A DNA stretch of 64,000 bases from an uncultured bacterium (GTDB taxonomy: Bacteria; Patescibacteriota; Kazan-3B-28), in NCBI GenBank assembly GCA_963695435.1, contig OY968788.1:134330-198329 (forward strand), in the 5' to 3' direction. The notes beneath the pieces were generated by a model. That model made no database searches, had not been told where the DNA came from, and worked only from the letters and a program-made list of their open reading frames with translations. Shown here one piece after another: positions 2,833 through 57,140 of this stretch. The position numbers and the translations under genes were made by a program. Every line of letters begins with the position of its first letter. Positions within the stretch are counted from its first letter, which is position 1.

Positions 2833-5388
2833 ATGAGTGAACTCATGCCGTTTGGTCCCAGACACGAGATAGATAAGATTCGCCGTCAAATGAAGGCGCG
2901 GTCTTTGGGTAGAAAAGCAAAGAAGAGGGTTTTCACTTTTCTGTCTCGGTATGGCATCAATACTCCGCCAAAGTTGTTTTTGGCGGGGTTTATCGCCGTT
3001 CTTTTTGTATTCAGTTTCACGATGGCGGTGGTTTCAGTTGGACTTCCGAACCCTGCTAGATTGGTAATTTATGCGGCGACTGATTCGACTAAAGTATTCG
3101 ATCGTGACGGTGCCGTACTTTATGACATCTCAAACGGGAAAAACCGCACAACGATTCCTTTTGAGCAAATGCCTGAAGATTTGAAGAATGCAACTATCGC
3201 TATTGAGGATAAAGATTTTTATCATCACAACGGTTTTGATATCAAAGGATTTTTGCGCGGGACAATTTTGAAACCACTTGCGGGGCAAGGTTTTCAGGGT
3301 GGCTCAACAATTACCCAGCAGTTTGTGAAAAATGCGTTGTTAAGTTCGGAGAGAAGTGTCTTACGCAAAGCGCGAGAATTGATTTTGGCATTTGAGTTGG
3401 AAGCGGTTTATTCCAAAGATAAGATTTTGGAATTGTATTTGAATGAGATTCCATACGGCAGCGGGGCATACGGGGCGCAACAGGCGGCTAAAATGTATTT
3501 TGGGAAAGATGCCAAGGATATTAATTTAGCAGAAGCAGCGGTGTTGGCGGCGTTGCCGCAAGCACCGGGGAGATATTCCCCTTACGGACAAAATCCGGAT
3601 TTGCTGATGTTGCGTAAAGATTTGGTTTTGGCGCAGATGGAAAAGCAGGGCTACATCACCAAGGCGGAGGAGGTGGATGCCAAAAAGACGGAAATAAAGT
3701 TTCAACCTCGGAGGGATTCGATTCGCGCTCCTCATTTTGTAATGTATGTAAAAGAATTGTTGGCGGCGAAGTATGGCGAAAAGGTGTTGGAAGAGGGTGG
3801 ACTGCAAATCACCACTACATTAGATATTGATAAACAAAAGGCGGCGGAAGATACAATCGCTAATTTAGCGGAATCCAACAAAACGAAATACAACGCAGGC
3901 AACGCGGCGTTAGTTTCAATCGATCCAAATACGGGAGAGATTTTGGCGATGGTGGGGAGTAAAGATTATTTTGATATGGAGGCGGAAGGAAATGTAAATG
4001 TGGCAATTCGTGAACGGCAACCTGGTTCGTCTATCAAACCGCTTGTTTATGCCACTGCGTTCAAAAAAGATTATGCTCCTGCAACAATGCTGGTGGATGT
4101 GTCCACTGATTTTGGTCAGGGGTATCGGCCACGCAACTATGACGGAGGTTTTCGCGGACCGATTTCTGCTCGGGAGGCGTTGGGCAACTCTATCAACGTT
4201 CCTGCGGTAAAGACATTGGCGTATGCGGGGGTGCAGGACACGATTGATACTGCGCATGATATGGGAATCACTACGCTAAACGGCGGAGCAGACAGATACG
4301 GACTTTCGCTCACATTGGGAGGCGGAGAAGTTACTTTGTTTGATTTGACTCGCGCGTATGGTGTGTTTGCGACGGGCGGAAATCTGACACCGACAATGGC
4401 AGTTTTGAAAGTGACGGACAAATTTGGTCATGTGTTGGAAGAAAACGAACCTGAAAAATCTAAGCAAGTTTTGGATCCGCAGGTGGCGTATTTAATAAAT
4501 AGTATTTTGTCGGATGACAGTGCGCGCGCTCGAGTATTTGGAATGGGCGGGCTACTGACGTTGCCTGGCAGAACAGTTGCGGCGAAGACGGGTACAACAA
4601 ACGATTACAAAGATGGTTGGACAATAGGCTACACTCCTGATTTGGTGACAGGAGTTTGGGCGGGGAATAATCACAACGAAGAAATGACTGCCTCATCAGC
4701 AATGGTGGCGGCGCCAATGTGGAATAGATATATGAAGTTGGCACTGGCTGGTGTACCAAATAAATCTTTCAGCAGACCTGATGGAATTTCGGATGTGATG
4801 GTGGATGCCTTGTCGGGCAAGTTGCCGGTTGAAGGTGTGACGCCAACAACAAAGTCAGAAGTGTTTGCGAGCTGGAGCGTACCGAAAGAAATGGACAATG
4901 TGCATGTGGTGAAAAAAGTAATGAAGAGCGACACCAGCAAATTAGCACCAGCAAATGCACCTGCGGAATTAACTGAAGATAAAGTATTTACTGTAATTCA
5001 TTCGGAACGGCCGAGTAGTTCAAATTGGGAAGGTCCAGTTCTGGCATGGGCGGCGGCAAATGGATATAACAATGTCCCAACGGAAACTTATTCTGGTTCG
5101 ATGGATGGGAGTGCGACGGCGGAAATTACTTTGACGAATCCGATAGAGGGGGCAACGGTTACGGGAGATTTGTTAGTTTCAGCGAGTGTTAGAGCGGGGG
5201 TAGGTGTGAAGAGAGTTGAGTTTTATTATGATAATTCGCTGAAAGGACAGGTGACAGGAGCGCCGTATCAATTTACGATTAAAGCTCCCAAGCAAGACGG
5301 GAAGACACATACCGTTAGGGTTAGATTGCTCAAGGCTGATAATAGTACTGCAGAGGATAGTGTAAGTATTGTTGCTGGTGGAGGATAA
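2833..5388 (+). CDS. class A penicillin-binding protein (transglycosylase + transpeptidase) with a C-terminal Ig-like extension
   Basis: GT51 motifs EDKDFYHHNGFD and GGSTITQQFVKN; transpeptidase SSIKP (SxxK) and KTGTTND (KTG). Confidence 0.9.
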   Translation: MSELMPFGPRHEIDKIRRQMKARSLGRKAKKRVFTFLSRYGINTPPKLFLAGFIAVLFVFSFTMAVVSVGLPNPARLVIYAATDSTKVFDRDGAVLYDISNGKNRTTIPFEQMPEDLKNATIAIEDKDFYHHNGFDIKGFLRGTILKPLAGQGFQGGSTITQQFVKNALLSSERSVLRKARELILAFELEAVYSKDKILELYLNEIPYGSGAYGAQQAAKMYFGKDAKDINLAEAAVLAALPQAPGRYSPYGQNPDLLMLRKDLVLAQMEKQGYITKAEEVDAKKTEIKFQPRRDSIRAPHFVMYVKELLAAKYGEKVLEEGGLQITTTLDIDKQKAAEDTIANLAESNKTKYNAGNAALVSIDPNTGEILAMVGSKDYFDMEAEGNVNVAIRERQPGSSIKPLVYATAFKKDYAPATMLVDVSTDFGQGYRPRNYDGGFRGPISAREALGNSINVPAVKTLAYAGVQDTIDTAHDMGITTLNGGADRYGLSLTLGGGEVTLFDLTRAYGVFATGGNLTPTMAVLKVTDKFGHVLEENEPEKSKQVLDPQVAYLINSILSDDSARARVFGMGGLLTLPGRTVAAKTGTTNDYKDGWTIGYTPDLVTGVWAGNNHNEEMTASSAMVAAPMWNRYMKLALAGVPNKSFSRPDGISDVMVDALSGKLPVEGVTPTTKSEVFASWSVPKEMDNVHVVKKVMKSDTSKLAPANAPAELTEDKVFTVIHSERPSSSNWEGPVLAWAAANGYNNVPTETYSGSMDGSATAEITLTNPIEGATVTGDLLVSASVRAGVGVKRVEFYYDNSLKGQVTGAPYQFTIKAPKQDGKTHTVRVRLLKADNSTAEDSVSIVAGGG

Positions 5389-5419
5389 CGCCGTTTTTTG
5401 TTTTTTATTCTTTTTCTTT

Positions 5420-5535
5420 TTTGTCATTCCAGCGAAGGCTGGAATCTATTTTTATTTAATTGTTTTGAAGCGCCGAATCGCGCTTCAGCGATTGTTACTT
5501 TCCGCTTGAGGAAAGTAACCAAAGTCGCTCGCCAG
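5420..5535. repeat. composite dispersed repeat: family D hairpin followed by family A (two hairpins gaagcgccgaatcgcgcttc and gttactttccgcttgaggaaagtaac)
   Basis: A near-identical ~85-bp copy lies at 43975-44057. Partial copies at 6863-6900 and 36598-36625. Confidence 0.8.
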
Positions 5536-5712
5536 TCGCTTTCACTCTGAATCTCCCAAAATCCTCTCCATCTGCTTATCACCAAACTCGCTACGCTCAG
5601 ACATGGGCACGCTGATTGGAGGGATTTTGGGGATTCAGTACGCTCAAGCTCCAATGGCGGAAATAAAAGAGGATTGATACACTAATGGTGTAATAATTAT
5701 ATTATTGACAAT

Positions 5713-5731: not shown

Positions 5732-6034
5732 ATGAAAATAGAGCTGAAAGTTTTAGAATATGTTGCAGATTTTTTGGATGACTTACCAGTGGAGTTATAC
5801 GCTAGATGTGTAAAGAAGTTGAAGCTTTTTGAAGAATTTGGCTTTTTATTGTCAAAGACTGATCTAAAGAAGATCAATAAAAATATTTGGGAGTTGCGTC
5901 CGGGGGACATCAGAATTCTAATAGGTAAAGCGAAGGGCTGTATGTGGGCATTACACGCATTTCCCAAGACAAGTCAGAAAACGCCTATAAAAGAGATTAA
6001 GTTGGCAGACAAACGTTTAAGAGAATTAAGATGA
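5732..6034 (+). CDS. HigB/RelE-family (Gp49-like) type II toxin
   Basis: IWELRPGDIRILIG...HAFPKTSQKTP matches the Gp49/HigB pattern. Stop overlaps the next start (ATGA). Confidence 0.7.
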   Translation: MKIELKVLEYVADFLDDLPVELYARCVKKLKLFEEFGFLLSKTDLKKINKNIWELRPGDIRILIGKAKGCMWALHAFPKTSQKTPIKEIKLADKRLRELR

Positions 6035-6330
6035 GCAAGAAAAAATTCTACACAGTTAGTGAGATAGAAAAGAGAGCGATGAAGAGTCCGAGTTTTCGTC
6101 GGGCTTACGAAGCATTAGAGCCCGAGTATCAAATTGCTAGGGCGGTAATACAGGCGCGTCACAAAAAGGGGATGACGCAAGGAGAATTGGCTCGAAAGGC
6201 GGGAACTAAGCAACCTGTTATTGCGCGTTTGGAGAGCATGAAGAGCCCTGCTTCTTCCAAGAGTATGGGGCGAATTGCTCATGCACTTGATCTTCGCTGG
6301 GAACTAAAGTTAGTGCCGAAGACCAGATAA
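6031..6330 (+). CDS. HigA-like XRE-family HTH antitoxin
   Basis: GMTQGELARKAGTKQPVIARLE is a Cro/C1 HTH. 4-bp overlap with the upstream toxin gene. Confidence 0.7.
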   Translation: MSKKKFYTVSEIEKRAMKSPSFRRAYEALEPEYQIARAVIQARHKKGMTQGELARKAGTKQPVIARLESMKSPASSKSMGRIAHALDLRWELKLVPKTR

Positions 6331-6765: not shown

Positions 6766-6862
6766 TATAGATTTTTTTGTTTTCTTGTCCTCGGGCTTGA
6801 CCCGGGGATCCAAACATTTTTTTATTTAGTTTTTCAAGGGTCTGCGCGACCCTTGTACCGCG

Positions 6863-6900
6863 GTTACTTTCCGCTTGAGGAAAGTAACCAAAGTCGCTTG
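6863..6900. repeat. family A partial copy (gttactttccgcttgaggaaagtaaccaaagtcgct)
   Basis: Identical core hairpin to those at 5497-5535 and 44021-44057. Confidence 0.75.
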
Positions 6901-7098
6901 CCCACGTCGTCGGAACTATCAATTGGCAAAAATCATCTTTCCGCTAATGGTCGAAACTCGGTCGTAGCCACTCCCTCAAACATCTCCCCGCGGCGATGAT
7001 TTTACTCAATTGATTACATTCCTCCTCCTATGGCAGGGGAAGTTGACTGAGGGGAGGATTACTGATATAAGGGATATTATAGTAAACTGAATTAGGAC

Positions 7099-9880: not shown

Positions 9881-12385
9881 ATGAGTAAATTTTTTCCACA
9901 ACGGCCGGAGGCGAACCCAGCAATTTACGCCTACGAAGACACAAACCCACAATACGAGGGTTTATTAAAAGTTGGTTTTACCACTACGGATGCTCGAGCT
10001 CGAGTGGCACAACAATACCCAACACGACGCCCAGGGGTATTACCTTACAAGATAGTTTTTGAAGAATCGGCTATGCGCAATGATGGCACTATTTTAACTG
10101 ACCATGATGTGCATCGTTATTTGCGCAAAAAAGGTATCGCAAACCCCAAAGGAGAATGGTTTAAGTGCAGTATAAAGGAAATCACTGCAGCTGTATTGGC
10201 TATTAAGAGTGGCGTTAAGAACGAAGATGATCGGACTCTTAGTTTTAGCATGCGGCCAGAGCAAGAAGAAGCAGTAGAGAAAACTATTTCGTATTTTAAG
10301 AGCTTTAGTAAAGAGAACAAGGGTAAAACTCCACACTTTCTTTGGAATGCAAAAATGCGTTTTGGGAAAACATTCGCTACATATCAGTTGGCAAAAAAAA
10401 TGGGATGGAAAAAAATACTAGTACTTACATTTAAGCCGGCAGTGCAGAGTGCTTGGGATGAGGATCTTCAAACACACATCGATTTTAAGGGTTGGCAATT
10501 TATTGCACCAAATGGTTTAACATTTGGGAGAGCTAATAAGAAAAATCCTTTTGTGTGCTTTGGTTCATTTCAGGATTATTTGGGGAAAAATACATCAACA
10601 GGCGGGATTAAAACGAAGAATGAATGGGTGCATGCTACCAATTGGGATTGTGTGGTATTTGATGAATATCATTACGGAGCTTGGCGAGAGAATGCAAAGG
10701 ATTTATTTGAAGCAGAGGGGGAAAGAGAGTTGGAATTTGGAGAGGGGGAGGGTATTGAGTATTTTGATGAAGGTGCAATGCCGATCACTACTAACGCGTA
10801 TCTGTATTTGTCTGGTACGCCATTTAGAGCTATTGCGTCTGGTGAGTTTATTGAAGAACAAATTTTCAACTGGACCTATTCGGATGAGCAGCGGGCAAAA
10901 GAGAATTGGAAGGGTGAGCCAAACCCGTATGCTTCTTTGCCAAGAATGGTGATGCTGACTTATCAACTGCCTGATTCTATCCGTGAAGTTGCCATGAAGG
11001 GGGAATTTAATGAGTTTGATTTAAACCTCTTTTTTAGTGCGGAGGGACTAGGAAGGAATGCAAAATTTAAATATGAAGATGAGGTTCAAAAATGGTTGGA
11101 CTTGATTCGAGGCTCTTTTTCCGAAACAACGATAGATAATTTAAAATTGGGGGCAAAAAAACCACCATTACCTTTCTCACACGCACCTTTACTAAATGTT
11201 CTATCACATACATTTTGGTTCTTGCCAAGTGTTGCTTCTTGCTATGCGATGAGAAATTTACTTGAACAAAGGCAAAATAAGTTTTATCACAACTACAAGG
11301 TGATTGTTGCGGCTGGGACTAGCGCGGGAATTGGTGTAGCGGCGCTCCCGCCAGTACAGCAGGCAATGGAAGATCCTCTAAGCTCAAAAACCATAACTCT
11401 ATCTTGTGGCAAACTTACAACAGGGGTGTCGGTCAAGCCATGGACAGGGATTTTTATGCTACGTAATTCGTCAAGTCCTGAAACTTATTTTCAAGCGGCT
11501 TTTCGTGTACAAACGCCTTGGACCGTGAATAACCCTGATAGTAAATCGCCCAATAAAGAAGAGGTTATCAAACAAGAGTGCTATGTTTTTGACTTTGCGC
11601 CGAACCGAGCTCTCAGACAAATTGCCGACTACGGTTGCCGTCTGAATGTAAATGAGTCTAACCCTGAAAAGAAAATTGATGAATTTATCCATTTTTTACC
11701 TGTGCTTGCTTATGACGGTAGTGCCATGAAGCAAATTGATGCGGCAGGTATCTTGGATATGGCAATGAGCGGCACTACCGCCACCTTGCTTGCAAGAAGG
11801 TGGGAAAGTGCGCTACTGGTCAATGTCGATAACAACACCTTGCAGCGTTTGATGAATAACCAAGACGCGATGGATGCCTTAATGAGTATTGAAGGTTTCC
11901 GTAGTTTAAATAAAGACATTGAGACTATTATTAATAAATCGGAAGCTGTACAAAAAATAAAGAAAGAGGCAAACGATAAAGAGTTAACTCCCAAGAAAGA
12001 GAAAGAGTTGAGCAAAGAGGAGAAAGAGTACAAAAGTATAAGAAAACAGATTCAGGAAAAACTTATAAAATTTGCTACTCGCATTCCGGTATTTATGTAT
12101 CTAACTGATTATCGCGAGAGAAGCTTGAAGGATGTTATTACCAAGCTTGAACCAGGTTTATTTAAAAAAGTAACAGGTCTTTCTGTTAAAGATTTTGAAC
12201 TATTGGTTAGCCTTGGTGTTTTTAATAGCGCACTCATGAATGATGCGGTGTATAAGTTTAAGAGATATGAGGACGCAAGTCTAGCGTATACGGGTATTAA
12301 TAAGCATGAGGGTGAGGATATTGGTCTTTATGACACAGTTATCAGTAACAAAGAATATAGGCAGACATTTGAAAATCATGAATAA
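9881..12385 (+). CDS. T5orf172 (GIY-YIG-like) domain fused to an SF2/ResIII-type helicase; candidate restriction (Res-like) subunit
   Basis: N-terminus IYAYEDT..EGLLKVGFTTTDARARV..GEWFKCSIKEI (T5orf172 pattern). Helicase motif I MRFGKTF, motif II VVFDEYHYG, motif III LSGTPFR, motif VI QAAFRVQTP. K/E-rich C-terminus. Confidence 0.7.
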   Translation: MSKFFPQRPEANPAIYAYEDTNPQYEGLLKVGFTTTDARARVAQQYPTRRPGVLPYKIVFEESAMRNDGTILTDHDVHRYLRKKGIANPKGEWFKCSIKEITAAVLAIKSGVKNEDDRTLSFSMRPEQEEAVEKTISYFKSFSKENKGKTPHFLWNAKMRFGKTFATYQLAKKMGWKKILVLTFKPAVQSAWDEDLQTHIDFKGWQFIAPNGLTFGRANKKNPFVCFGSFQDYLGKNTSTGGIKTKNEWVHATNWDCVVFDEYHYGAWRENAKDLFEAEGERELEFGEGEGIEYFDEGAMPITTNAYLYLSGTPFRAIASGEFIEEQIFNWTYSDEQRAKENWKGEPNPYASLPRMVMLTYQLPDSIREVAMKGEFNEFDLNLFFSAEGLGRNAKFKYEDEVQKWLDLIRGSFSETTIDNLKLGAKKPPLPFSHAPLLNVLSHTFWFLPSVASCYAMRNLLEQRQNKFYHNYKVIVAAGTSAGIGVAALPPVQQAMEDPLSSKTITLSCGKLTTGVSVKPWTGIFMLRNSSSPETYFQAAFRVQTPWTVNNPDSKSPNKEEVIKQECYVFDFAPNRALRQIADYGCRLNVNESNPEKKIDEFIHFLPVLAYDGSAMKQIDAAGILDMAMSGTTATLLARRWESALLVNVDNNTLQRLMNNQDAMDALMSIEGFRSLNKDIETIINKSEAVQKIKKEANDKELTPKKEKELSKEEKEYKSIRKQIQEKLIKFATRIPVFMYLTDYRERSLKDVITKLEPGLFKKVTGLSVKDFELLVSLGVFNSALMNDAVYKFKRYEDASLAYTGINKHEGEDIGLYDTVISNKEYRQTFENHE

Positions 12386-13595: not shown

Positions 13596-14882
13596 ATGAA
13601 AGTTACGAAATCACAGGGAGAGAAGAATAAGGTTAGATTATCCATTGCGCTGGAGGCGTCTGAATGGAACGCCATTTTGGATAAGGCGAGTGGGAAGGTG
13701 AGTGAGGGGTTGAAGGTGGATGGGTTTAGGGAGGGGAAGGCGCCGAGGGATATTGTGATTGCGAAGGCGGGCGAAGCCCGCGTGATTAGTGAAGCGATTG
13801 AGTTGGCGGTGGAGCAGTATTATCCAATGGCGGTGAAGGAAGAGAATTTGAAGCCCATTGCGTTCCCGAAGATTTCTGTAGAAAAAGGTAATTTGACTGA
13901 GCCGTTGGAGTTTACGGCGGAAGTTGCCATATTGCCGGAAGTTGTTTTGGGAGATTATTCGAAAATCAAATTGACGAAGAAGACAGACGAAGTCGGTGAT
14001 GCGGATGTGGAGGCCGTTTTGAAGAATTTGCAGAAGAAGGCGGTGGAGTTTCAGGAAGTGGAGCGCGTAGCGCAATTGGGAGATTGGGCGGAAATTGATT
14101 TTGAAGGATTTGTTGAAGGTAAGCCATTTGAAGGCGGTGCATCCAAGAAGCATCCGTTGATTTTGGGTGATAAAGTTTTTATCCCCGGTTTTGAAGAAGG
14201 ATTGGTTGGTTTGGGGAAGGGCGAGGAAAAAGAAATCGAAGTGACTTTCCCGAGTGATTATCACAACAAAGATTTAGCGGGGAAGTCAGCGAAATTTAAG
14301 GTGAAGATGAATTTGGTGAAGGCGGTAAATTATCCTGAAATAAATGATGAGTTTGCGAAGAAGCATGCGGGGCAGGAGAGTTTGGAAGTTTTGAAGACGG
14401 ACATCAAAAAATATTTGGAAGAGGAGTCGGCGAAAAAAGCGGAGGAAACTTTGCGGGAAAATGCGTTGCTGGAATTAGTAAAAGTCGCGAAGATTGATTT
14501 GCCTGAAGAGATGATTGAGCAGGAATTGGATAGTATGGTGCATGACCTCAAACATCAGGCGGAACATAGTGGCATGAGTTTTGAAGATTATTTGAAAAAA
14601 GCGGGAGTGAATGAAGCTGGGCTGAAAGCCCAATGGCGGGAACAGGCGGAAAGTCGGGTGCGGATTGGTTTGGCGCTGGAAGCTTTTCGCGATAAAGAAG
14701 GAATTTCGGCTGACGATTCGGATGTTGATGCGGAAATAAAGAAACTGAAAGTGATGTACCCGCAGGACGGGGAGAACATCGATAAAGAATACGGCAAAGG
14801 TTCGAATGGACGCAGTAAGTTGCAGAGAATGTTGGGAAGTCGGAAAGCCATCGACAAATTAGCCGAACTCTTCACGAAATAG
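13596..14882 (+). CDS. tig: trigger factor
   Basis: GFREGKAP, FIPGFEEGLVGLGKGEEKEIEVTFPSDYH (PPIase/FKBP-like segment), overall three-domain layout. Confidence 0.9.
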   Translation: MKVTKSQGEKNKVRLSIALEASEWNAILDKASGKVSEGLKVDGFREGKAPRDIVIAKAGEARVISEAIELAVEQYYPMAVKEENLKPIAFPKISVEKGNLTEPLEFTAEVAILPEVVLGDYSKIKLTKKTDEVGDADVEAVLKNLQKKAVEFQEVERVAQLGDWAEIDFEGFVEGKPFEGGASKKHPLILGDKVFIPGFEEGLVGLGKGEEKEIEVTFPSDYHNKDLAGKSAKFKVKMNLVKAVNYPEINDEFAKKHAGQESLEVLKTDIKKYLEEESAKKAEETLRENALLELVKVAKIDLPEEMIEQELDSMVHDLKHQAEHSGMSFEDYLKKAGVNEAGLKAQWREQAESRVRIGLALEAFRDKEGISADDSDVDAEIKKLKVMYPQDGENIDKEYGKGSNGRSKLQRMLGSRKAIDKLAELFTK

Positions 14883-19562: not shown

Positions 19563-19638
19563 GCCGACGTAGCTCAGCTGGTAGAGCACCTCCATGGTAA
19601 GGAGGGGGTCACCGGTTCAATCCCGGTCGTCGGCTCCA
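19563..19638 (+). tRNA. tRNA-Thr (anticodon GGT)
   Basis: Acceptor gccgacg/cgtcggc, D-arm tagctcagctggtagagc, anticodon loop atggtaa, T-arm accgg-ttcaatc-ccggt, CCA. Confidence 0.85.
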
Positions 19639-19800
19639 CGTCGAAATGGCTTCGCCCGACGCGCGAACAAGTAAAACTTGTTCGGCTATTGAGGCTCAGC
19701 ATTTCTCCTTTCAAAATCACAAACAGTCGTTTTACTCCTTGGTTTGCGATTTTGGCTTAGGGGAGGACATAGTTGACAGATAGGGCGACCTATTTCATAA
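19639..19800 (+). repeat. post-tRNA conserved element, family B copy 1 (ends in a ttgaca-17-cataat promoter)
   Basis: cgtcgaaatggcttc...cggctattgaggctcagcatttctcc...ccttggtttgcgattttggctt...ttgaca. The homologous copy lies at 54925-55100. Confidence 0.75.
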
Positions 19801-20463: not shown

Positions 20464-21282
20464 ATGCTAGAGAAGAAAGTTGTCACTAAAAAAGTGACGA
20501 AGAAGGCGGTTAAGAAACCTAGTGCGGGAGATGAATCCTCCTACGCCAAGGCTACGAAGGACATCGGAGCTAAGAAAAAGATAGCTCCTCGTAAGTTTGG
20601 GCGAGGGAAGAAATATCTCGCTGTTTTGCCGAAGGTAGATAAGGAAAAGTTTTATCCGGCAGATGAGGCGATTAAGTTAGCGCAGGAAACTTCCCCGAGC
20701 AAATTTGATGCAACGATAGAGTTGCATGTTTGTATGGGGTTGGATCCAAAGAAGCCTGAGCAAAATATCCGCGGAACTGTTTCGATGCCAGCCGGAACGG
20801 GCAGAACTAAAAAGATCTTGGTTTTGGCGGAGGAAGCAGATGCAAAGAAAGCATTGAGCGCGGGAGCAGATTACGCTGGTCTTGAAGATATGATTAAGAA
20901 AATCCAAGAAGGTTGGATGGATTTTGATTTGGTAATTGCAACACCAACAGCAATGCCTCAAGTTGGAAAACTTGGGCAGACATTGGGGACCAAAGGTTTG
21001 ATGCCAAATCCAAAATCAGGAACTGTTGCGCCTGATGTCGCGAAGGCAGTTGAAGAATTCAAAAAAGGAAAAGTTGAATTTCGTTTAGACAAAGACGCGA
21101 TTATTCATTTGGGGTTTGGGAAAGTTTCATTTAAGACAGAAGATTTGATGACGAACTTCAAAACGATTGTGAGCGCTATTCAATCGGCGAAACCTGCGGC
21201 GTCTAAAGGGTCTTACATCAAACGGATGTCAGTGGCTTCGACGATGGGGCCGGGGATCAAAATCGATCTTCAATCAATCTAA
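20464..21282 (+). CDS. rplA: 50S ribosomal protein L1 with Lys-rich N-terminal extension
   Basis: ELHVCMGLDPKKPEQNIRGTVSMPAGTG. Confidence 0.92.
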   Translation: MLEKKVVTKKVTKKAVKKPSAGDESSYAKATKDIGAKKKIAPRKFGRGKKYLAVLPKVDKEKFYPADEAIKLAQETSPSKFDATIELHVCMGLDPKKPEQNIRGTVSMPAGTGRTKKILVLAEEADAKKALSAGADYAGLEDMIKKIQEGWMDFDLVIATPTAMPQVGKLGQTLGTKGLMPNPKSGTVAPDVAKAVEEFKKGKVEFRLDKDAIIHLGFGKVSFKTEDLMTNFKTIVSAIQSAKPAASKGSYIKRMSVASTMGPGIKIDLQSI

Positions 21283-21284
21283 AG

Positions 21285-21390
21285 CTCTCGAGAGAAGAAC
21301 GAAGGTATGTTCCTCTCTCGACGCTCGTGGGCAAAGCCCATTTCGACAAGTCGAAACAAGCTCACTGCTCTTACCTCCACCTAAAAGATA
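21285..21390 (+). repeat. ~105-bp structured repeat, family G copy 1 (directly after rplA stop)
   Basis: ctcgagagaagaacgaaggtatgttcctctctcgacgctcgtgggcaaagcccatttcgacaagtcgaaacaagctcactgctcttacctccacctaaaaga. Almost identical to 23564-23668. Confidence 0.85.
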
Positions 21391-21520
21391 GAAAAGGAGA
21401 CCGTCCTGCTGTACAGCGGGGCGGTTTTTGTTTGGTGTATAATTTGGGTAAGGAACGACCGACCGATTTTGTAGGGGGCGGGGTTTCGGTATTGTAACTT
21501 ACAAATGAGGAGGTGAGGGG

Positions 21521-22183
21521 ATGCCTCACAGGAAGAAGGATCTGGAAAAGATTCTCAAGAACTTCTTCGTTTTCGAAGGTATAGACGGCTGTGGCAAAGG
21601 AACACAGACGCTGTTGCTAAAAGATCTCCTCGAGCACCATGGGTACGAGGTCTTAGCGACAGAAGAACCAACCAACGGAGAGATAGGCCGTAATATTCGG
21701 CGGGTTCTAGGAGAAGATGAGGGGATTATCAGACCGTCTATGGAGGTGTTGCAGTGTGAATGGTACACACAAGATAGACGGGAGCACCAATTCGAAATTC
21801 GTCGTGCTTTGGGTGGTGCAAAAAGAGTGGTTTTATGTGACAGATATTATCACTCAACCATCGCCTATGGTGCTGCCGCCAAGGACAACGTGCCGTTCGA
21901 TAAGACCTGGACGGTCAACCAAGAGTTCTACAAGCCGGGACTAACGATCTGGCTGAAAATTCCTCCCAAGGATGCGTTCAGAAGGCTCAACTCGCGAAAG
22001 CGCGACCTGTTTGAGAAGGACCCAGACTTTCAGATGAGGGTCCATCAGGAGTATGAGCGGCTGGCGGCGAGACCCGAGTTTTCGGAGATCGTGACAATTG
22101 ACGCCTCTCGATCCGTGGAGTTGGTAGCGCTTGATGTCCAAAAAGTAGTGGCTGCGCATTTAAACCCGCAGCGCGCTGCCTAG
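21521..22183 (+). CDS. tmk: thymidylate kinase
   Basis: FVFEGIDGCGKGTQ P-loop; DRYYHS. Confidence 0.85.
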   Translation: MPHRKKDLEKILKNFFVFEGIDGCGKGTQTLLLKDLLEHHGYEVLATEEPTNGEIGRNIRRVLGEDEGIIRPSMEVLQCEWYTQDRREHQFEIRRALGGAKRVVLCDRYYHSTIAYGAAAKDNVPFDKTWTVNQEFYKPGLTIWLKIPPKDAFRRLNSRKRDLFEKDPDFQMRVHQEYERLAARPEFSEIVTIDASRSVELVALDVQKVVAAHLNPQRAA

Positions 22184-23017: not shown

Positions 23018-23560
23018 ATGGAGAATATTATGGCAGATGAAAATACAATTCCAGAAGAGCAAGCTCCAGAAGCTTCCACCTCCGCTGAAGCTACGGTGGA
23101 CGTTCCGGTAGAAGCTCCAAAGGAAGATAAGAAAGTAGACAGTATGTCTACTGAAGCCTCGGCGAAGGTAGATGCAAGCAAGTTGTCAGGCAATGCCAAA
23201 AAAGTTTTGGACATGGTTAGTGAGATGACAGTGCTTGAGTTGGCTGAGCTCGTGAAAGTATTGGAAGACAAGTTCGGCGTGAGTGCCGCGCCTGTTGCCG
23301 TTGCCGCCGCTGGTGGTGCTGGTGCTGGAGCTGCAGCCGTCGAAGAGAAGAGCGAATACAACATTAACTTGGTTAATGCTGGTGCCAACAAAATCAACGT
23401 GATTAAGGCAGTTCGCGAAGTGACCGAGTTGGGCTTGAAAGAAGCCAAAGACTTAGTCGAAGGCGCACCAAAAATGGTGAAAGAAAATGTAAAGAAGGCG
23501 GACGCAGAAGAGATTAAGAAGAAATTAGAAGCCGCAGGTGCCAAAGTCGAGTTACAATAA
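23018..23560 (+). CDS. rplL: 50S ribosomal protein L7/L12 (with acidic N-terminal extension; true start may be internal)
   Basis: Ala/Gly-rich hinge and [28 protein letters not shown]. Confidence 0.9.
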
Positions 23561-23563
23561 AAT

Positions 23564-23668
23564 ATCTCGAGAGAAGAACGAAGGTATGTTCCTCTCTCGA
23601 CGCTCGTGGGCAAAGCCCATTTCGACAAGTCGAAACAAGCTCACTGCTCTTACCTCCACCTAAAAGAA
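23564..23668 (+). repeat. family G copy 2 (directly after rplL stop), followed by terminator at 23680-23710
   Basis: ~99% identical to 21285-21390. Terminator is gaagccccgccgaaaggcggggcttttt. Confidence 0.85.
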
Positions 23669-23817
23669 AGAATAAAGAAGCCCCGCCGAAAGGCGGGGCT
23701 TTTTGGTCTCTATTTGACCTTGGGGGCAGATGTGCTATCTTGCGGGTGGCGTGTTTTTGGCTCTAGAAGCCAAAAAGCGACTACTAGCTATTTGACATTT
23801 AGAAGGGGGTGATAACA

Positions 23818-39946: not shown

Positions 39947-39987
39947 AAACTCTTGCCATATCTGATGTAAGGAGGTATTATTTTGGC

Positions 39988-40191
39988 ATGTCAACTTTCG
40001 TAAAAAAGAAGGAACGGGAGAGCTTCGACGCTATGCTGCGGCGGTTCAATCGGATGGTAATGTCCAGTAAGGTGCTGGCGGAATACAAAGAACGCCGGTT
40101 TTTTGCTAAACCAACCTCTAAGAGAGAGCTGAAATCAACGGCTTTGCGGAGAGAGAAAATCCGCGTACAAAAGCAGAAGGAACTGTATTAG
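39988..40191 (+). CDS. rpsU: 30S ribosomal protein S21
   Basis: ESFDAMLRRFNRMVMSSKVLAEYKERRFFAKPTSKRE. aggagg RBS upstream. Confidence 0.85.
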   Translation: MSTFVKKKERESFDAMLRRFNRMVMSSKVLAEYKERRFFAKPTSKRELKSTALRREKIRVQKQKELY

Positions 40192-40298
40192 CTCTTGAGG
40201 AAAGAACGAGGGCGTGTTCTTCCCTCAACGGTCAGTCGGCTAAGCCGAGTTTCGCAAGCGAAACCAAGCTGACCTGCTCTCATCTCCACCCTAAAGAG
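40192..40298 (+). repeat. family G diverged copy 3 (directly after rpsU stop)
   Basis: ctcttgaggaaagaacgagggcgtgttcttccctcaacgg...gagtttcgcaagcgaaac...gctctcatctccaccctaaaga parallels the G1/G2 hairpin layout. Confidence 0.65.
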
Positions 40299-40343: not shown

Positions 40344-40790
40344 ATGGGATTGAAGGAACAAATTACGGGAGAGATGAAGGAAGCGATGAAGGCGGGAGAC
40401 GCCTTGAGGCTTTCAACTTTGCGTATGTTAATTGCGGCGTTCAATAATATGGAAATTGAGAAACGGGCGCAGGGAGTTGAACATCCAGAAGAAAAAGATT
40501 ATCAGGCAGTAATAAAGAAAGAAGTGAAGAAGCGCCAAGAAGCAATTGAGGCGTACAAAATGGCGGGACGAATTGAATCGCAAGAACAAGAAGAAAAAGA
40601 ATTGAAAATGCTGTCAGTTTATTTGCCTGAAGAAATGAGTGAAACGGAAGTAAAAGTGGTAGTGGATGCGGTAATTTCCGAAATGGGAGTTGGTAATATG
40701 GGAGCAATTATCGGAGAAGTGAAGAAAAGAACCGATGGTCGCGCAGATGGCGGGATGATAGCCAAACTGGTGAAAGAAAAATTAGGGTAG
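40344..40790 (+). CDS. GatB/YqeY domain protein
   Basis: YqeY pattern EAMKAGD..RLSTLRML, and conserved linkage after rpsU. Confidence 0.8.
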   Translation: MGLKEQITGEMKEAMKAGDALRLSTLRMLIAAFNNMEIEKRAQGVEHPEEKDYQAVIKKEVKKRQEAIEAYKMAGRIESQEQEEKELKMLSVYLPEEMSETEVKVVVDAVISEMGVGNMGAIIGEVKKRTDGRADGGMIAKLVKEKLG

Positions 40791-54847: not shown

Positions 54848-54924
54848 GGGCTTGTAGCTCAGTTGGTTAGAGCGTTCGGTTCACATCCGAAAGGTCACTG
54901 GTTCGAGTCCAGTCAGGCCCACCA
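54848..54924 (+). tRNA. tRNA-Val (anticodon CAC)
   Basis: Acceptor gggcttg/caggccc, D-arm gctcagttggttagagc, anticodon loop ttcacat, T-arm actgg-ttcgagt-ccagt, CCA. Confidence 0.85.
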
Positions 54925-55100
54925 CGTCGTCGAAATGGCTTCACGCTACGCACGAGCTCGACAAGTTTGCTCGGCTATTGGCGTTCAGCATTTCTCCTCT
55001 CCCCAAAATGTTCGCTACGCTGGAACATTTCGGGGACCCCATTTTAGGGCTCCTTGGTTTGCGATTTTGGCTTTGGGACTGGGGAAGGTTGACTTATGGG
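54925..55100 (+). repeat. post-tRNA conserved element, family B copy 2 (ends in ttgact-17-taagat promoter-like region)
   Basis: cgtcgaaatggcttc...cggctattggcgttcagcatttctcct...ccttggtttgcgattttggctt...gttgac parallels 19639-19800. Confidence 0.75.
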
Positions 55101-56036: not shown

Positions 56037-56496
56037 AGCAGAATTAGTAAAAAAATTAAGAGATTTGACTTCTGCCGGAATGATGGAAGCCAAGCAGGCT
56101 TTGATGGAAGCAGGCGGTGATTTTGATAAAGCGGTAGAACTTCTAAAGGCGCGCGGTGCAGCCATTGCCGCTAAAAAGGCAGAACGGATAGCCGCTAACG
56201 GTATCGTTGCTTCATATGTTCATATCGGTAGCAAAATTGGCGTGCTGGTGGAAGTAATGGTGGAAACAGATTTTGTCGCTCGCGATGAAAAGTTTGTCAC
56301 TTTTGCTAAAGATTTAGCAATACACATTGCGGGAATGAATCCAGCCAATCTAGAGGAGCTGATGAGCCAACCTTTTGTCAAAGACCCTAGTATAACGGTG
56401 GCTGATTTGCTAAACGAGCAAGTTGCTCACTTCAAGGAAAATATTAAAATTGGCCGATTTGTACGGATGGAATTAGGGGTAGTACCAACATGTTAG
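56023..56496 (+). CDS. tsf: elongation factor Ts (short form)
   Basis: TSAGMMEAKQALMEAGGDFDKAVELLKARG. Confidence 0.88.
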   Translation: MMEIKAELVKKLRDLTSAGMMEAKQALMEAGGDFDKAVELLKARGAAIAAKKAERIAANGIVASYVHIGSKIGVLVEVMVETDFVARDEKFVTFAKDLAIHIAGMNPANLEELMSQPFVKDPSITVADLLNEQVAHFKENIKIGRFVRMELGVVPTC

Positions 56497-57035
56497 ATGA
56501 ACTTAAATCCAAGTTGGATCAGAGTTTGGCAGTGTTTCGCGAAGATTTGAATGGTGTACGCACGGGCAGAGCCGGTGCGGGTTTGGTAGAAAATCTGGTG
56601 GCGGATGTTTACGGCAGTAAGATGCCGTTGAAGCAGATTGCGAGTGTGATGGTACCAGACTCCCGCTCTATCGCTATTCAACCGTGGGACAAGGCAAATC
56701 TGGCATCAATTGAGAAAGCGATTCGGGAATCTGATTTGGGATTTAATCCTGTAAACGATGGAACGATGGTGCGAATCAATGTCCCTCCGCTTTCAGAAGA
56801 GCGCAGAGCTGAGTTGGCAAAGATTGCATCCAGTAAGGCGGAAAATGCTAAGGTGGTTATTCGCAATGTGCGGCGAGAAGTGATGGATAAGATTACCGGG
56901 CAAGTAAGAGATAAGCAGATCGGTGAGGACGAACAGAATCGCTTAGAAAAACAGGTGCAGGAAAAAGTTGACGGAGCAATCGCTTCCATTGACGAATTAT
57001 TCAAACAAAAAGAAGCCGAGATCAAAACAGTCTAA
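56490..57035 (+). CDS. frr: ribosome recycling factor
   Basis: RTGRAGAGLVENLVADVYGSKMPLKQIA. Confidence 0.92.
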   Translation: MLDELKSKLDQSLAVFREDLNGVRTGRAGAGLVENLVADVYGSKMPLKQIASVMVPDSRSIAIQPWDKANLASIEKAIRESDLGFNPVNDGTMVRINVPPLSEERRAELAKIASSKAENAKVVIRNVRREVMDKITGQVRDKQIGEDEQNRLEKQVQEKVDGAIASIDELFKQKEAEIKTV

Positions 57036-57057
57036 GTTGCTCGGAGTGAAAACCCAG

Positions 57058-57140
57058 AAATAGGGTTTTCCCTTCCGACGCTCGCTAACGCTCACTGCCT
57101 CCCTTTCCAAGAGGAGTTCGCAGTCCGAAGTGAATTCGAG
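57058..57140 (+). repeat. possible diverged family G copy after frr
   Basis: cgacgctcgctaacgctcactgcctcc resembles cgacgctcgtgggc...gctcactgctcttacctcc. Weak. Confidence 0.3.

Follow-up and report, generated by a model that had tools for sequence, protein, structure and literature searches.

REP elements are imperfect palindromes of ~35 nt that lie in enterobacterial 3' untranslated regions (UTRs), stabilise the upstream mRNA and are mobilised by RAYT transposases. BOX repeats are built from A, B and C modules, and the exonuclease-resistant RNAs (xrRNAs) of flaviviruses stand at the start of the 3' UTR, where a multi-helix junction with a long-range pseudoknot is linked to decay and to stable 3' fragments. 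Bacteria of the candidate phyla radiation (CPR), or Patescibacteria, have genomes of ~0.6 Mb, from which very few regulators or non-coding RNAs are known. Croucher et al. (2011; PMC3049150) judged the structured, co-transcribed BOX/RUP/SPRITE repeats of pneumococci to be parasitic. Precedents for a bacterial 3'-UTR motif that resembles the anti-Shine-Dalgarno (anti-SD) sequence and for pairing between 5' and 3' UTRs are icaR of Staphylococcus aureus (PMC3868564) and hbs of Bacillus subtilis (PMC5737220). Here, we describe family G, a repeat of ~105 nt found directly after stop codons in a 64-kb stretch of DNA from an uncultured Kazan-3B-28 bacterium of the Patescibacteriota (contig OY968788.1, positions 134,330 to 198,329; the whole stretch is hereafter called the window) and in related contigs. 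The element folds into four helices that are maintained through compensating substitutions.

Sequence reading, repeat finding, BLAST and an nhmmer profile put the number of full copies in the window at exactly three (G1, G2 and G3; Table 1), each of them on the + strand; beyond these, the best remaining matches to the nhmmer profile in the 64 kb had E > 0.4. G1 and G2 differ by one mismatch over 108 nt (99.07% identity), close to the ~99% estimated in an earlier sequence-only reading of this DNA, and G3 is 78–79% identical to both (nhmmer E = 1e-33 to 1e-38). The same reading had described a structured repeat family with one hairpin layout in diverged copies; the family is real and the quoted hairpins are present. 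Other genomes were searched by an exact-pattern scan for the conserved 3' part and then with covariance model R1, and nine further copies were found in other Kazan-like CPR contigs (loci outside the window carry L numbers). The pattern scan gave two stretches in species-representative genomes (Kazan CP011216 and a metagenome-assembled genome labelled Saccharibacteria) and eight in metagenomes, two of which were chance matches. R1 added three diverged copies: L006 proved to contain another one, inverted, and rplL is followed by one in L029 and by one in the L012–L015 lineage. The window and the Kazan CP011216-like genome each contain both subtypes, A and B, and the family is therefore old. A pattern match on a viral contig (L011, the same contig as L008) was discarded as a chance match, as was the identical match L010; all three lack the hairpins.

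Twelve copies were aligned (alignment A4: the three window copies and L002, L004, L005, L006a, L006b, L007, L009, L012 and L029), 11 of which represent distinct lineages or sites. RNAalifold and explicit pair counting concurred on helices P1 to P4. The P1 hairpin has 13 bp and a G-rich loop that is conserved (GAGGUGUG), P3 is a 5-bp hairpin with an A-rich loop and P4 a 7-bp hairpin with a variable loop. P2, a 6-bp helix, closes around P3 and P4; subtype B and the inverted L006 copy have it intact, and in subtype A it is degenerate. Invariant unpaired segments lie between and after the helices (ACG, CAAG, CUGCUCU and a pyrimidine-rich tail, CA(Y)CUC-CACC), and the element usually continues 3' into an A-rich spacer and then an intrinsic terminator. 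Standard pairs occupied 93.2% of the cells in A4, compared with 35–47% when the 3' partners were slid by 1–3 columns. Double-sided changes were seen in 19 of the 37 pairs, and none of 500 shuffles reached the observed covariation, which agrees with the compensatory substitutions expected of a 3'-UTR element. The changes were densest in P4 (6 of 7 pairs), and P2 was fully compensated in the inverted L006 copy (GAGCCG/CGGCUC versus GGUCAG/CUGACC). The covariance model that the sequence-only reading had proposed as a check was built as R1; stems P1–P4 covary, and the model recovered more diverged copies.

The position of the element is as regular as its fold. A stop codon of an open reading frame (ORF) on the same strand precedes 11 of the 12 copies, as expected of a 3'-UTR element, and P1 begins -4, 3, 3, 3, 3, 4, 5, 6, 6, 9 and 9 nt from the last base of the stop, which in L029 lies inside P1. 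The distance of 1–3 nt given earlier was slightly generous: conserved sequence begins 0–4 nt after the stop, and the first helix begins 5, 6 and 3 nt after it in G1, G2 and G3, respectively. Clear terminators follow at least seven copies (G1 and G2; visible also after L004, L005, L006, L012 and L001), and the proposed 3'-UTR placement agrees with what we found, namely that the element lies in the sense direction, directly after stops and upstream of terminators. G3, L002 and L009 lie inside operons and are followed by no terminator; G3 sits 55 nt before a yqeY-like gene that starts at 40345.

According to Pfam, the upstream genes encode L1, L12 (in four lineages), L11, S21, FtsZ, an NHL-repeat protein and two unknown ORFs. 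The L12 context was assigned by Pfam in the window, L005 and L029, and from the L12 look-up protein in the L012–L015 lineage. Pfam agreed with the earlier naming of rplA, rplL and rpsU upstream of the window copies. The association with translation genes proposed at that time holds for L1, L12, L11 and S21; FtsZ, the NHL-repeat protein, the two unknown ORFs and one copy without an upstream gene do not fit it. The element is associated with gene ends rather than with translation genes as a class, and high expression is expected of most of the genes concerned. Outside the window, too, the copies found sit after same-strand stops, the one exception being in L006.

We put at roughly 40% the probability that family G is a co-transcribed, cis-acting 3'-UTR module that affects the stability or processing of the upstream mRNA 3' end. 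The folded module would form a compact roadblock or a processing determinant at the 3' end of the upstream, mostly highly expressed, mRNA, and the roadblock would confer stability against exonucleases or leave a defined, stable 3' fragment. A ribosome covers roughly 12–15 nt downstream of its P site. As a terminating ribosome would cover the start of P1, this helix should open transiently when the upstream gene is translated; the tail would then be freed, and the fold may report translation status. Paralogues have been kept over long divergence in genomes of this small size, which argues for selection on the fold. The copies may have spread and decayed by local duplication or gene conversion together with deletion, and they bear no classical transposase signature.

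Observations of several kinds weigh against a stabilising or processing module. The function is inferred from position only, in uncultured organisms, and a terminator hairpin already protects most 3' ends, so that an extra stabiliser is not obviously needed. One of the copies in L006 (5821–5934, +) is well folded, has no upstream ORF of its own and is inverted with respect to the ftsZ-associated copy (5960–6069, -); the two diverged copies flank one bidirectional terminator between ftsZ and nrdR. Furthermore, the element is dispensable on short timescales. L016–L026 and L030 have no copy in the rplKAJL region, and most of the sampled relatives lack the element there. In L001, the closest relative (L10 ~95% identical by eye), the TAA stop of rplL is fused to the tail module only (TAAGCTCACTGCTCTCATTTCCACCC; 4131–4160), and P1–P4 are deleted. 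At the G1-orthologous site of the same contig (1–125), the tail and terminator are identical to those of G1 and another hairpin stands ahead of them (CCCTCCTCC...GGAGGAGG); the contig begins 87 nt upstream of this tail, which leaves the upstream gene out of view. These L001 sites indicate modular exchange or deletion.

Patchiness of this kind, at the same sites in close relatives, is what a selfish, non-autonomous interspersed repeat similar to BOX/RUP/SPRITE or REP/ERIC would produce, if insertion between a stop codon and a terminator were harmless. Its structure would then serve its own propagation or be a by-product, and any effects on host mRNA would be incidental. Empty orthologous sites are frequent among the relatives. 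In L027 (L12 84% identical), rplA and rplL are each followed by the stop, 24–26 nt and a terminator, without the element, and in L031 (S21 97% identical), the rpsU–yqeY spacer is 18 nt where the window has G3. Therefore, the element is an insertion between stop and terminator. With stop-to-terminator spacers this short (~25 nt), any insertion ends near a stop, which removes much of the apparent site-specificity. G1 and G2 are nearly identical despite unrelated flanks and lie 2.3 kb apart, pointing to recent duplication or gene conversion. TA occurs at both junctions of seven copies (G1, G2, G3, L002, L005, L009 and L029) and not of L004, L006a, L006b, L007 or L012, a weak signal in AT-rich flanks where the 5' TA belongs to the stop codon; the 3' flank of G3 resembles the L031 empty site.

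Modular, deleted and swapped derivatives are also consistent with a selfish repeat. Besides the tail-only and alternative 5' modules of L001, the shortened relative after frr is one such derivative: the sequence-only reading had listed frr as a possible site, and a relative does follow it directly, but it is not a full member, as the two central hairpins are missing. Model R2, which was reduced to P1, P2 and the tail for finding shortened variants, gave it 41 bits, a non-independent score given that the relative is a member of the R2 training alignment. The R2 search returned only the known copies, the frr variant and two tail-only L001 remnants. In addition, the post-stop positions of rplL and rplA are taken in L020 by an unrelated repeat family, D1, which also lies after ftsZ in the window and L031; the wobble counts given below favour neither strand, as expected under weak selection at the RNA level, and the pneumococcal repeats offer the parasitic precedent cited above. 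Nevertheless, terminal inverted repeats and a consistent target duplication are both lacking, and the copy number is low (three per 64 kb, few in ~0.5 Mb of related sequence). The family has been retained for long, with many compensating changes, in lineages whose L12 proteins are only 64–80% identical, and 11 of its 12 copies keep strictly to the orientation of the upstream gene. Neither a transposase nor a RAYT-like partner turned up, although no systematic search for them was made, and BLAST with G3 showed no similarity in phage and plasmid collections. We therefore regard a purely selfish repeat as rather unlikely, if a serious alternative.

A further objection to the 3'-UTR module concerns the folding strand. 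The sense-strand wobble totals are 13 G.U versus 14 A.C cells, and the sense strand is not favoured overall. The imperfect cells of P1 and P4 are A.C on the sense strand (9 and 3, respectively) and would be G.U on the antisense strand, and the A.C pair at A4 columns 16/37 is retained in five diverged subtype-B copies. Antisense G1 folds at -46.6 kcal/mol (z = -4.0), compared with -32 kcal/mol (z = -2.95) for the sense strand, and U-rich tracts flank the terminators that follow G1 and G2 on either side, so that these could act bidirectionally. The functional form could be an antisense RNA or a single-stranded DNA structure, for example a site associated with recombination or replication, with the sense transcript as a bystander. 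We consider this very improbable. The loop–tail pairing and P2 hold 8 and 3 sense-strand G.U cells, respectively, and these 11 would be mismatches on the antisense strand. No - strand promoter is conserved, because the flanks are unrelated between copies, and neither integron attC core sites nor a conserved antisense ORF is present. Lying after a stop and ahead of a terminator, the element should be within the transcript of the upstream gene and would be transcribed in the sense direction.

The pseudoknot that would complete the sense fold meets objections of its own. Complementarity between the tail and the P1 loop exists in two registers, CAYCUC (A4 columns 101–106) and CACCY (columns 107–111), and ~91% of the loop–tail cells are paired in either register, compared with 47–64% in slid controls. 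Each register contains one double change from G-C to A-U, and the eight G.U cells just mentioned lie in register 1. Both double changes come from the single G1/G2 lineage, however, and the loop–tail duplex energies are no better than those of shuffled tails, because any G-rich loop pairs with any C/U-rich tail; the register is ambiguous. A pseudoknot between the tail CA(Y)CUC-CACC and the P1 loop GAGGUG is therefore plausible, not established. The tail 'ctcttacctccacc', listed earlier after the hairpins, exists and, instead of being free, may be paired with the P1 loop. Pairings between the tail and the sequence that immediately follows it were not consistent from copy to copy.

The same tail suggests another explanation. 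Its sequence (UCACCUCC-ACC) resembles the 3' end of 16S rRNA, a likeness judged against the general bacterial 16S 3' end, as the host 16S rRNA lies outside the window. As a mimic RNA, it could pair with ribosome-binding sites, either in cis by 5'/3'-UTR pairing of the icaR type or in trans as a small RNA derived from the 3' UTR. The Shine-Dalgarno (SD)-like P1 loop would mask the tail, and a terminating ribosome would melt P1 and unmask it, coupling the element to translation flux. The two tandem tail motifs (CAYCUC and CACCYU) are each complementary to the loop GAGGUG, the start of P1 at -4 to +9 nt from the stop and the L029 stop inside P1 suit such a mechanism, and ribosome-binding sites of genes in the window are of the GGAGG type (GAGGAGGTGA ahead of tmk is one). 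icaR and hbs provide precedents, and the 3' end of a processed fragment would be defined by a terminator lying directly downstream. Ribosome-binding-site pairing is nonetheless unlikely in our view. In G1 and G2, loop and tail have departed jointly from the SD/anti-SD consensus (GGUA with UACC), which indicates that selection acts on the internal pairing and not on pairing with ribosome-binding sites. As an anti-SD, the subtype-B tail CAUCUCC is imperfect, three copies (G3, L002 and L009) lie in operons without a terminator, and no conserved complementary target or 5'-UTR pairing was identified, no target search having been made.

A bolder version, which we rate as a long shot, would make family G a sensor of translation termination, in which a pre-formed SD/anti-SD-like pseudoknot lies near the ribosome that terminates on mRNAs for ribosomal proteins and cell division. 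Termination would melt P1 and release the 16S-3'-end-like tail, which would bind ribosome-binding sites or a factor that binds the 16S 3' end. In organisms whose regulatory repertoire is minimal, ribosome flux could thereby act back on the initiation of translation or on the decay of mRNA. If so, family G, D1 and the repeat trailing tRNA genes described below would be interchangeable 3'-end modules of an unrecognised CPR regulatory layer.

The remaining classes were considered and rejected. A protein-coding small ORF does not fit, as the MGKAHFDK... frames of G1 and G2 are interrupted by TAA in G3 and frame-shifted in L006a. Coding on either strand and read-through of the upstream stop were likewise rejected, as the frames differ among G1, G2, G3 and L006a; the length differences of P4 between copies are not multiples of three. 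A miniature inverted-repeat transposable element of the Correia type was rejected for want of terminal inverted repeats: the 5' end, (A/T)(G/A)CTCTYGAG, does not match the reverse complement of the 3' end (GGTGGAGRTGAGAGC), and the inverted repeats in the element are its internal hairpins. A REP/BIME assignment is at odds with four helices and a tail over ~105 nt in three copies per 64 kb. For an integron attC site, the two ends fail to pair with one another, GTTCCTC and GTTCTTC misfit GTTRRRY, the RYYYAAC/GTTRRRY cores are absent and the neighbours are core housekeeping genes. Rfam 15 returned only four tRNAs for the whole window at the gathering threshold, only a chance mir-198 match on the opposite strand for the G1 region at E ≤ 10, and no match overlapping an element in L004, L005, L007 and L009 at E ≤ 1. 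The literature yielded no described CPR RNA motif of this kind.

Table 1. Family G copies, their parts, upstream genes and terminators in the window.
Feature	Position	Strand	Details
rplA (ribosomal protein L1)	20464..21282	+	ORF; Pfam Ribosomal_L1 E = 4.7e-62; stop TAA 21280-21282; upstream of G1
Copy G1, subtype A	21283..21388	+	covariance model R1, 108.9 bits
G1 helix P1	21288..21321	+	13-bp hairpin, one A.C mismatch; loop GAAGGUAU at 21301-21308
G1 hairpin P3	21328..21340	+	UGGGC AAA GCCCA
G1 hairpin P4	21341..21356	+	UUUCGAC AA GUCGAAA; strongest covariation of all helices
G1 3' part	21357..21382	+	junction CAAGCUCA, linker CUGCUCU, pyrimidine-rich tail UACCUCCACC complementary to P1 loop
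Intrinsic terminator after G1	21396..21434	+	terminator prediction
rplL (L7/L12)	23018..23560	+	Pfam Ribosomal_L12; stop TAA 23558-23560; upstream of G2
Copy G2, subtype A	23562..23667	+	P1 23567-23600, P3 23607-23619, P4 23620-23635, tail motif 23644-23660
Intrinsic terminator after G2	23675..23709	+	also scores on the - strand, hence bidirectional
rpsU (S21)	39985..40191	+	Pfam Ribosomal_S21 and homologues; stop TAG 40189-40191; upstream of G3
Copy G3, subtype B	40189..40297	+	P1 40195-40228, P2 40230-40235/40269-40274, P3 40236-40248, P4 40249-40264, tail 40275-40291
frr	56490-57035	+	stop 57033-57035; upstream of shortened relative
Shortened family G relative	57036..57112	+	P1-like hairpin from 4 nt after the stop, CGACGCTCG, CGCTCACTGC, CTCCCTTTCC tail; no P3/P4

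Family G copies explain spurious ORF calls at their sites. ORFs 21327..21497 and 23606..23812 (MGKAHFDKSKQAHCSYLHLK...) start within hairpin P3 and traverse the terminators. The second had already been suspected to be an artefact, and its frame is indeed broken by TAA in G3 and by indels in other copies. Both ORFs are likely mis-annotated as hypothetical proteins in public records. The window L12 protein is 100% identical to database protein P0001 (176 aa), and judging by that sequence, the true rplL start is probably 23030.

The genes around G1 and G2 have features of their own. The window L1 (20464–21282) carries a Lys-rich N-terminal extension of ~70 residues ahead of the Pfam domain, and L7/L12 (23018–23560) an acidic one of ~55 residues; the listed L12 relatives are also long (170–200 aa). 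The rplKA and rplJL pairs are separated by nucleotide-metabolism genes, tmk in the window (21521–22183) and dut, thyA, folA or thyX in relatives (sites at L012 4807–5160 and L016 4713–5066). In several relatives, a 23S_rRNA_IVP (PF05635) gene lies directly after rplA.

Other repeats were noted in the window. D1, the second structured family, is present at 5449–5537, 6818–6906 and 43974–~44160 of the window, at 10532–10720 and 7040–7240 of L020 and at 13790–13960 of L031. Its core is GTTACTTTC-N8-GAAAGTAAC-CAAAGYCG, in a unit of ~190 nt with long-range GAAAATC...GATTTTC pairing. It lies right after the rplL and rplA stops in L020, a Kazan CP011216-like locus, and after ftsZ and its terminator in the window and L031; sites of these kinds are occupied by family G in other lineages. 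A 74-nt repeat (19639–19712 and 54928–55001, 78% identical) begins 4–7 nt after the 3' ends of tRNA genes (19563–19635 and 54848–54921), and ends in a C/U-rich CATTTCTCCTYTC tail reminiscent of that of family G. A terminator-like hairpin, GTCATTCC(C/A)GCGAAGGC(G/T)GGAATC, with T-run flanks is repeated at 904–945 and 5412–5453 (86% identical).

If family G acts on mRNA 3' ends, it would rank among the earliest candidates for a post-transcriptional element in this large, uncultured radiation. Its four helices, the possible pseudoknot and the deletion variants that occur in nature make it a compact object for studying how 3'-end structure, translation termination and mRNA decay are linked in minimal cells. 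If it is only parasitic, it documents the persistence and exchange of such repeats in extremely reduced genomes.

As a structured interspersed repeat or 3'-UTR motif, family G belongs to a known kind; its architecture, host group and distribution are uncatalogued. Like L17DE in Rfam, it is a conserved structured motif directly downstream of a ribosomal protein gene, but it has no Rfam match and is tied neither to one gene nor to ribosomal genes. With xrRNAs, it shares the start at the beginning of the 3' UTR, a multi-helix junction and a possible long-range pseudoknot from a loop to downstream sequence. The topology differs from that of the ring-forming xrRNAs in that the loop of the first hairpin would pair with the tail, and no Rfam xrRNA model matched. 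The C/U-rich motif of icaR and hbs, complementary to ribosome-binding sites and upstream of a terminator, is similar to the family G tail, but the latter has an internal partner in the P1 loop, co-changed in G1 and G2, and is multi-copy rather than gene-specific. REP/BIME elements are likewise 3'-UTR or intercistronic stem-loops with the same proposed role as 3'-end stabilisers. A REP, however, consists of one short palindrome headed by a conserved GTAG, and its hundreds of copies often form inverted clusters, whereas family G is a 105-nt four-helix fold with a single-stranded tail. According to Croucher et al. (PMC3049150), BOX/RUP/SPRITE repeats resemble family G in being small (~100–200 nt), structured, intergenic and without an encoded protein, as well as co-transcribed with their neighbours, often at gene ends and variable among close relatives. 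Modularity is a further shared trait, and similarity in sequence would not be expected. BOX repeats exceed 100 copies per genome in both orientations, whereas family G has few copies that are nearly always co-oriented with the upstream gene, and its fold has been kept across deep lineages by compensating changes.

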